NCBI GenBank assembly: GCA_964016885.1 | Contig: OZ024753.1 | Coordinates: forward strand, 38,936,001 to 39,000,000 | Direction of reading: 5' to 3' | Origin: Eledone cirrhosa | Lineage: Eukaryota | Length of the DNA: 64,000 nucleotides | Shown: piece after piece, positions 45,141 through 45,330 of the stretch | Numbering within the stretch: position 1 is the stretch's first letter | Layout of the letters: every line of letters begins with the position of its first letter | Notes under the pieces: model-generated | What the model was told of the DNA's origin: nothing | Seen by the model: the letters and a program-made list of their open reading frames with translations, nothing else | The model's database searches: none | Translations under genes and position numbers: made by a program

Positions 45141-45326
45141 CGAAGGAAATGTGGTAGGGAACCAGGTGGACCATAACGCACCAAAGTACTCAATACTTGA
45201 GGTAGTAGAGTGGGTAATAGGAACCAGTAAGACCCCGACAGCTGAGCTCAACCCGTTTCGACGGCTAATTCTGCCAGAATTAGCCGTCGAAACGGCTTGA
45301 GCTCAGCTGTCGGGGTCTTACTGGTT

Positions 45327-45330
<4 letters not shown>
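45139..45330 (-). mobile_element. Short (TA)n-embedded repeat family with half-hammerhead and fold-back palindrome (7 copies in window)
   Basis: Related copies at 15228-15352, 17454-17588, 28327-28387, 55542-55734, 56954-57065 and 60743-60916. Shared sequence gtcGAAACggc..gagctcagccGTCggggtc and/or ggtgcgttatggtccacctgg. Confidence 0.75.

Follow-up and report, generated by a model that had tools for sequence, protein, structure and literature searches.

Palindromic stubs of a (TA)n-targeting Penelope-like element, and what their junctions suggest about the origin of inverted pLTRs

How the tandem and inverted ends of Penelope-like elements (PLEs) originate is named as an open question (PMC8557442), and several described systems bear on it. 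A PLE protein is reported to cut and extend both strands of its target, with reverse transcription (RT) starting at two internal sites that define the tail, the spacing of the sites corresponding to the tail; in vitro, uncleaved Poseidon_Ac RNA serves as template (PMC11167929). For PLEs, whose pLTRs carry hammerhead ribozymes, more-than-unit-length or circular templates have been proposed (PMC4209133), the promoter of the Drosophila virilis PLE sits within the pLTR (PMC2377424), and a self-priming model on an antisense template has been put forward for the inverted pLTRs of Adineta vaga (PMC3846280). At the 5' junctions of full-length L1 insertions, an extra G is reported to mark the cap (PMC11702581). 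The marks given for the Hydra clade of PLEs are RW(K/R) and DKT motifs, a CxCx5C linker, no CCHH, CxxC and CxH motifs, and a (TA)n target (PMC8557442). The element described here is of this known kind, with a variant ribozyme and a proposed variant promoter layout; what is new is the evidence on mechanism that its junctions hold.

Family identity and copies in the window

The window, i.e. the whole 64-kb stretch of DNA analysed (G000:C13:38936001-39000000, within a 3.0-Gb genome), contains seven (TA)n-embedded repeat loci, as an earlier sequence-only reading had listed, with the two adjoining features at 60742-60920 counted as one (Table 1). Positions in the element are numbered from +1, the first base of the inferred RNA, which is L084:4549 in the autonomous reference copy, L084. 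On this map GAAA lies at +19..22, the predicted cut at +41/+42, the outer ends at +58 and +138 and the ATG at +232, and the stem II loop falls, in the fold, at -8..-5. At both outer ends the next bases in the element are TAT, as in the (TA)n target.

Table 1. Coordinates of repeat features in the window, and loci with template jumps
Feature	Position	Strand	Remarks
Two-armed stub, whole unit	45140-45328		80-nt tail, then 109-bp near-perfect palindrome, between TA runs
Tail-bearing arm, +138 back to +5	45140..45273	-	From alignment to L084; spans tail, stem I 3' strand, cleavage site, stem III, GAAA and part of stem II 3' strand
80-nt tail, +59..+138	45140..45219	-	Between two fixed outer ends
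Tail-less inverted arm, +4..+58	45274..45328	+	
Hammerhead 3' half	45289..45312	+	GAAA at 45289-45292, then stem III and the GUC triplet; cleavage predicted at 45311/45312 (+41/+42)
Second two-armed stub	55544..55733	+	Sister subfamily; tail on right
Single tail-less arm	60742..60808	-	Third subfamily; end near +1
Palindromic stub	60809..60920	.	Older subfamily B
Subfamily B stub	17456..17578	-	Tail arm truncated within tail, plus inverted arm reaching +1/+2
Subfamily B solo arm	28326..28384	+	+1/+2 to +58; flanked by TA runs
Degenerate subfamily B stub	15228..15353	-	Internal deletions
Subfamily B stub	56946..57054	+	Both arms stop near cleavage site (about +43 to +45)
Template-jump loci	L351, L352, L087, L320, L339, L341, L342, L336, L330		

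In the stub that begins at 45140 the arms meet head-to-head, and bluntly, at 45273/45274; its palindrome (45218-45330) matches itself at 97% over 114 nt (E 1e-51) and gives a DNA hairpin of -68.7 kcal/mol. Also confirmed are the palindromes reported at 55542-55655 and, with revised limits, at 60809-60920. The half motif of GAAAC, stem III, GUC and GGGGUC is as first described; no 5' core half was found in the window, and Rfam at gathering thresholds found no hammerhead there. The repeat had also been read as a mirror image centred on a long hairpin at what looked like stem II, and in these respects the reading has to be revised. The element is asymmetric, with the 80-nt tail on one side (45140-45219), and its palindrome is not centred on the stem II loop, which the fold places 5-8 nt upstream of +1; the likeness of the mirror arm to the stem II 5' strand arises solely from its being the 3' strand in reverse complement. 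The arm at 60742-60808, beyond the palindrome as first described, is a second arm that belongs to another subfamily, and the 15228 copy, said to be truncated, is indeed degenerate and internally deleted but still holds a degenerate 3' half.

On sequence grounds we assign the window repeat to the pLTR end and tail of an autonomous (TA)n-targeting PLE with Hydra-clade marks. A motif reaching just past the palindrome centre has 8,512 exact matches in the genome, often as inverted pairs 0 to 3.8 kb apart, and the tail motif matches exactly at 43,015 places; with the patterns read backwards, as controls, every pattern search of the genome gave 0 matches. Roughly 90% of the sampled insertions are stubs of <200 bp. 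Long copies run on into a 3' UTR and an ORF for RT and endonuclease, and for this reason the window repeat is to be read as a pLTR end with its tail rather than as a MITE. As had been supposed, the half motif belongs to the hammerhead, of type I, of a PLE pLTR.

The single ORF of L084, a frame of 786 codons, comprises RT and, C-terminally, a GIY-YIG endonuclease, the YRDD and IY...YIG motifs being read from the sequence; a Pfam scan of this ORF gave no match, and it has 2,181 homologues at E<=1e-20. Autonomous copies have frames of 784-786 codons in seamless tandem units of 3.53-3.55 kb. L084 carries RWR and DKT, and all 7 aligned homologues carry RWK or RWR with DKT in place of DKG; the CxCx5C linker is present, CCHH is absent, and CxxC and CxH flank the conserved E and N. 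The layout is also that of PLEs, with tandem or partial-tandem pLTRs, the tail at one end and an inverted 5'-truncated copy, and 30/30 best copies are inserted in (TA)n, within which a TSD is not readable. The single ORF, the motifs, the (TA)n target, the tail and the inverted 5'-truncated copy are thus common to this element and to the Hydra clade of C-terminal EN+ PLEs as described in PMC8557442, an assignment that derives from motifs and layout. Two traits that serve there as description and not as diagnostic motifs differ: the unit, at 3.53-3.55 kb, compares with generally <3 kb in the clade, and the clade's canonical hammerhead is replaced by one with U3-A8 in its core and with a long stem II. 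Naiad and Neptune were ruled out by domain order and motifs.

The hammerhead and its variant core

The sequence-only reading predicted that intact copies would be found genome-wide with a CUGANGA core. Intact copies do exist, with the expected GGCUA/UAGCC pairing in stem II, but their core is UUGANAA, i.e. with a U3-A8 pair. A genome search for CUGANGA returned 32 matches, and 0/20 of those read had stem I ahead, whereas the true 5' half, UUGANAA followed by the stem II strand, has 6,843 genome matches in which position 7 takes all four bases. Searches built on CUGANGA miss this ribozyme.

Among 45 distinct full copies, 29 have U3-A8 and 16 a C3-A8 mismatch, and the pairs of stems I and III are kept in 80-100%. 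The core features of a type I hammerhead are present: the 3-8 pair, a free position 7, GAAA and an NUH triplet. The minimum free energy (MFE) fold of the youngest subfamily is the three-way junction, yet its stability is no better than that of shuffles (z -0.04), and under a strict junction test a constrained fold gave the three-way junction in 8/35 copies. U3-A8 is described as a natural covariation that is active in vitro (PMC3088659), and it is reported in the Schistosoma Cercyon PLE (PMC4209133). The hammerhead described here resembles those of PLE pLTRs (PMC4209133) in its type I topology, its G10.1-C11.1 pair, its long helix II and its U3-A8 covariation, and also in the occurrence of motif pairs on opposite strands, which are 100-700 bp apart in that account. 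It differs from them in that helix III is a full stem of 5-6 bp, as compared with the minimal dimer type, and in that the element's own transcript, if it starts inside stem II as proposed below, would begin with half a ribozyme.

The stem II 3' strand is complementary to the stem III 5' strand (L084:4560-4575), and the competing hairpin that the two form over GAAA is the MFE fold in some subfamilies. The C3-A8 subfamily (L085, L105 and others; the 16/45 copies above) is predicted to be inactive, yet has multiplied.

Arm ends and junctions

Breakpoints were sampled without bias from the first 100 tail matches in the first 18 Mb of C1, which gave 96 anchors in loci L091-L180; positions are those of maximal extensions and so include chance matches. 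The tail arm ended at -4..+10 in 52 of the 96, at +11..+83 in 35 and at -5..-15 in none. The remainder comprised two ends, at -16 and -23, and 7 long arms, or 8 with L108, the -23 case, which is really a long copy in which an indel halted the measured extension. In 71/96 an inverted arm adjoined the tail arm; of these two-armed insertions, 53 have the inner end of the inverted arm within -4..+10 and 60 have its outer end at +58/TAT. The copies with a single short arm numbered 18/96. Taking short arms together, 17/160 ends reached -1..-4 and 2/160 reached -5..-8. A breakpoint peak had been predicted at the stem II loop; the breakpoints are indeed non-random and their peak lies inside stem II, but it is a wall at +1, on the 3' side of the loop and 41 nt before the cleavage site.

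The 30 best copies are 96-100% identical and have common outer ends, yet show 14 different centres (counted by eye), which implies that the centre forms anew at each insertion. The junctions are heterogeneous, mostly with 0-4 nt of overlap or short inserts. In 20/71 insertions the inverted arm outreaches the tail arm by 8 nt or more, and in 5/71 the tail arm outreaches the inverted one to that extent (p 0.004). Palindromes whose flanking motifs lie 0-30 nt apart number 10,070 genome-wide, and the stem II loop is retained in 3 copies. An arm ending at +2 and followed by one sense-strand C recurs (L013, L014, L017, L020, L127, L160, L161, L214 and L228), for which a short template slip and terminal addition are both options. 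The outer ends at +58 and +138 are each followed, after a few bases, by one of two similar bulged hairpins (L084:4614-4650 and 4690-4720).

The base that precedes +1 is informative. Among the first 100 of 6,308 arms with a non-T base there, it is G in 48, A in 8 and C in 44, as compared with G in 9, A in 33 and C in 58 for a control one base upstream (first 100 of 1,543); G against A differs between the two with a Fisher p of 1e-10 (tallies by eye), and C before +1 is the native base in some subfamilies. Of 36 G arms read in context, from 40 places, the opposite arm explains the G in 13 and does not in about 22 (reclassified by eye). Both arms end at +1 with an added purine at 202 junctions, and the first 50 of these comprise 46 G+G, 4 G+A and 0 A+A; once 8 with arm-derived inserts are removed, G+G remains in 38/42. 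In the older subfamily B, G precedes +1 in 28, A in 11 and C in 61 (n=100), and 0/30 of its loci read extend upstream of +1, with a search pattern that left out the native T.

These DNA junctions make it likely that +1 is a capped transcription start inside stem II. The L1 5' junctions described in PMC11702581 similarly show a single extra G where RT meets the RNA 5' end, but the element described here differs from L1 in having the extra G on both arms of one insertion, after just 58 and 138 nt of synthesis. In 45 copies the word at +1 is conserved; a TATA-like word near -29 is less so, being degenerate in all but the youngest subfamilies. Of 9 G cases read, 4 are arms with the extra G that would go with a minor start at -4, a weak indication. 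With no constant upstream exon joined at +1/+2, a splice acceptor at that point was rejected. If the RNA does start inside stem II, as is likely, the stubs would lack the hammerhead 5' half for that reason and not because synthesis turned round.

A second class of ends coincides with the ribozyme cut. At 133 junctions both arms lie at or next to +42; the first 50 of them include 19 with no insert, 14 with a single A or T, 11 with other inserts and 6 with native extension, the extra base being G in about 6 and A in 15. The 19 without an insert could reflect CG microhomology. Purine-preceded starts number 308 at +42 and 77 at +41; of 30 read at each position, 21 are true starts, and at +41 the C mostly comes from the other arm. 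Since the extra base at +42 ends is mostly A or absent, the G is specific to +1. The +42 ends suggest some hammerhead cleavage in vivo and, as the halt of both arms at the same rare site suggests, the two arms may be copied from one shared RNA. The arms of one insertion also share their subfamily tag (67/69 short and 8/8 long, against about 0.5 expected from pooled tags), though this fits a fold-back, cis-preference, gene conversion or one RNA equally and does not discriminate between them. The commoner early stop of the tail arm may, speculatively, reflect a trailing enzyme on a shared template.

Origin of the palindromes, and the long copies

We consider it probable that the palindromes are two cDNAs of PLE RNA, both ending at its 5' end and joined head-to-head. 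In this account a (TA)n tract would be cut by the enzyme on both strands, and reverse transcription would be primed from each of the two DNA ends, at +58 from one and at +138 from the other, likely on the same RNA; each cDNA would run off the RNA 5' end, after which the cDNA ends would be trimmed and joined head-to-head via end-joining repair. The usual RNA 5' end would be the capped start at +1 inside stem II, which would yield the extra G, and a rarer one would be the ribozyme cut at +42, which would yield mostly A or nothing. The AT-rich target, the cutting and extension of both strands and the two internal RT starts are as reported for Poseidon_Ac in vitro (PMC11167929). The tail of that element is 30-40 nt, as compared with 80 nt here, and the report has no reads ending at the ribozyme site, whereas the genomic ends at +42 described here suggest some cleavage in vivo; inverted junctions, abundant here, receive no treatment in the available part of that account.

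The sequence-only reading had proposed instead that a single cDNA, or the second strand, reverses direction at the stem II hairpin during synthesis and templates its own mirror arm. That would accommodate the breakpoints within stem II, the subfamily tags common to both arms, the 3 copies that keep the loop, the 5/71 insertions in which the tail arm is longer by at least 8 nt, and the zero-spacer palindrome, which is the commonest single junction (10/30 best copies). We judge it highly unlikely as the general route, and for most copies it is largely refuted: the 3 loop-retaining copies stand against 10,070 palindromes, in 20/71 insertions the inverted arm contains sequence that the tail arm lacks, as compared with 5 in reverse (p 0.004), and self-priming cannot produce an extra G on each of two arms that lie 0-8 nt apart. 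A tail-less arm cannot template a tail, and in the 20/71 insertions the tail arm cannot template the inverted arm unless it was later deleted, which further argues against a fold-back. The Adineta vaga pLTRs (PMC3846280) likewise have head-to-head palindromic junctions and TATA-like and Inr-like words; the model offered for them places self-priming on an antisense template, whereas the extra base here is located at the sense 5' end, and two sense-templated cDNAs are favoured. Applied to the present junctions, that model meets the same difficulties as the fold-back.

Two cDNAs could also be joined as proposed, but with a +1 wall that marks a nuclease cut in the loop of stem II or an RT stall, caused by RNA structure or by a protein bound there, and with a G that was added by terminal transferase activity and not derived from a cap. 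The wall does abut the loop, and in the truncated RNA +12..+27 forms a competing hairpin, but +42 ends carry mostly A or no extra base, long copies cross +1 freely, and stalls would be expected at the entry of a stem and not on the side of its loop; we regard this version as highly unlikely. Very improbable, to our mind, is the trimming of long inverted insertions to short palindromes after insertion, by cruciform cutting and repair: the junctions resemble end-joining products and long palindromic insertions exist, yet such trimming would not account for the one-base wall, the extra G or the second class of ends at the cleavage site; hardly any arms end at -5..-130, and long inverted copies persist at >99% identity. 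Trimming may nonetheless add deletions downstream of +1. An ordinary DNA-transposon MITE, with long TIRs and TA duplication, can be practically dismissed. TA does flank the 113-bp palindrome on both sides, and PLE stubs look like MITEs, but the unit is asymmetric and runs into an RT-endonuclease ORF rather than having a transposase partner, its centre differs among near-identical copies, and a single short arm is found in 18/96; this possibility, which had been named as one that would overturn the earlier reading, fails accordingly.

The thousands of young junctions separate these models at single-base resolution and favour two cDNAs joined head-to-head. They also predict a transcription start from DNA alone, and their +42 ends provide indirect evidence that a PLE hammerhead cuts in vivo. 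A literature search largely confined to non-subscription papers found no cap or run-off account of PLE palindromes, and no start inside stem II or paired +42 ends for PLEs, which is not proof of absence.

The long copies appear to have another origin. Among 17 ORF-bearing copies >1.5 kb, 4 of them units of one array, there is no case of a start at +1, and 14/17 pass through a complete upstream ribozyme; it follows that long copies derive from another class of RNA than stubs. Long arms tend to pair with long: 100 listed matches to the 5' half contain 22 inverted pairs spaced at most about 5 kb apart (by eye). We infer that the templates of long copies were more than unit length or circular, as proposed for PLEs (PMC4209133).

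A more tentative scheme, which we hold to be possible rather than probable, is that a PLE enzyme dimer copies one RNA twice, from two start sites, onto both ends of the break. The promoter would lie within the ribozyme, such that the mRNA starts with half a hammerhead, and the complete ribozyme at the 3' end would cut off the downstream RT start sites and so spare just the 5' pair; ordinary mRNA would then yield only stubs, akin to strong-stop products, and full copies would need circular or multimeric RNA. If true, the scheme would unite the inverted pLTRs, the tail, the tandem arrays and the role of the ribozyme, and the marks of cap and cleavage would stand fossilised in thousands of junctions.

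Of 13 loci read for template jumps, 7 show synthesis resuming from about +1 and 2 show it resuming from +42; short direct repeats arise where the jump leads from the RNA 5' end (+1 or +42) into the ORF's 5' part. Full-element head-to-tail arrays of four units are found at L344-L347 and L349-L350, the units being 99.7-99.96% identical and several having open frames, and a 55-bp tandem array (L345:8116-10000) abuts the 5' end of a full-length array. L348:1786-4027 (G000:C2:356028000-356033000) consists of eight 299-bp units in (TA)n, each with a complete hammerhead, its stem II 20 nt shorter, the tail and the first part of the ORF. Its composition identifies L348 as a retrozyme-like array derived from this PLE: the tandem non-coding units, each with a complete hammerhead, by which non-LTR retrozymes are recognised are found in L348 and are absent from the window stubs.

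The window also holds sequences of other kinds. A weak tRNA-like Rfam match (6891-6948, minus strand; 29.8 bits) is possibly a SINE head. On the minus strand at 17007-17400, adjoining the 17456 copy, is a frame that we take to resemble the C-terminal end of an RTE-type LINE. A 371-codon frame with zf-RVT (51638-52753, plus strand) is the 3' part of a non-LTR element, with a relative at L082:1-1308, and at 62661-63256 a motif recurs every 198-199 bp in a probable tandem repeat.
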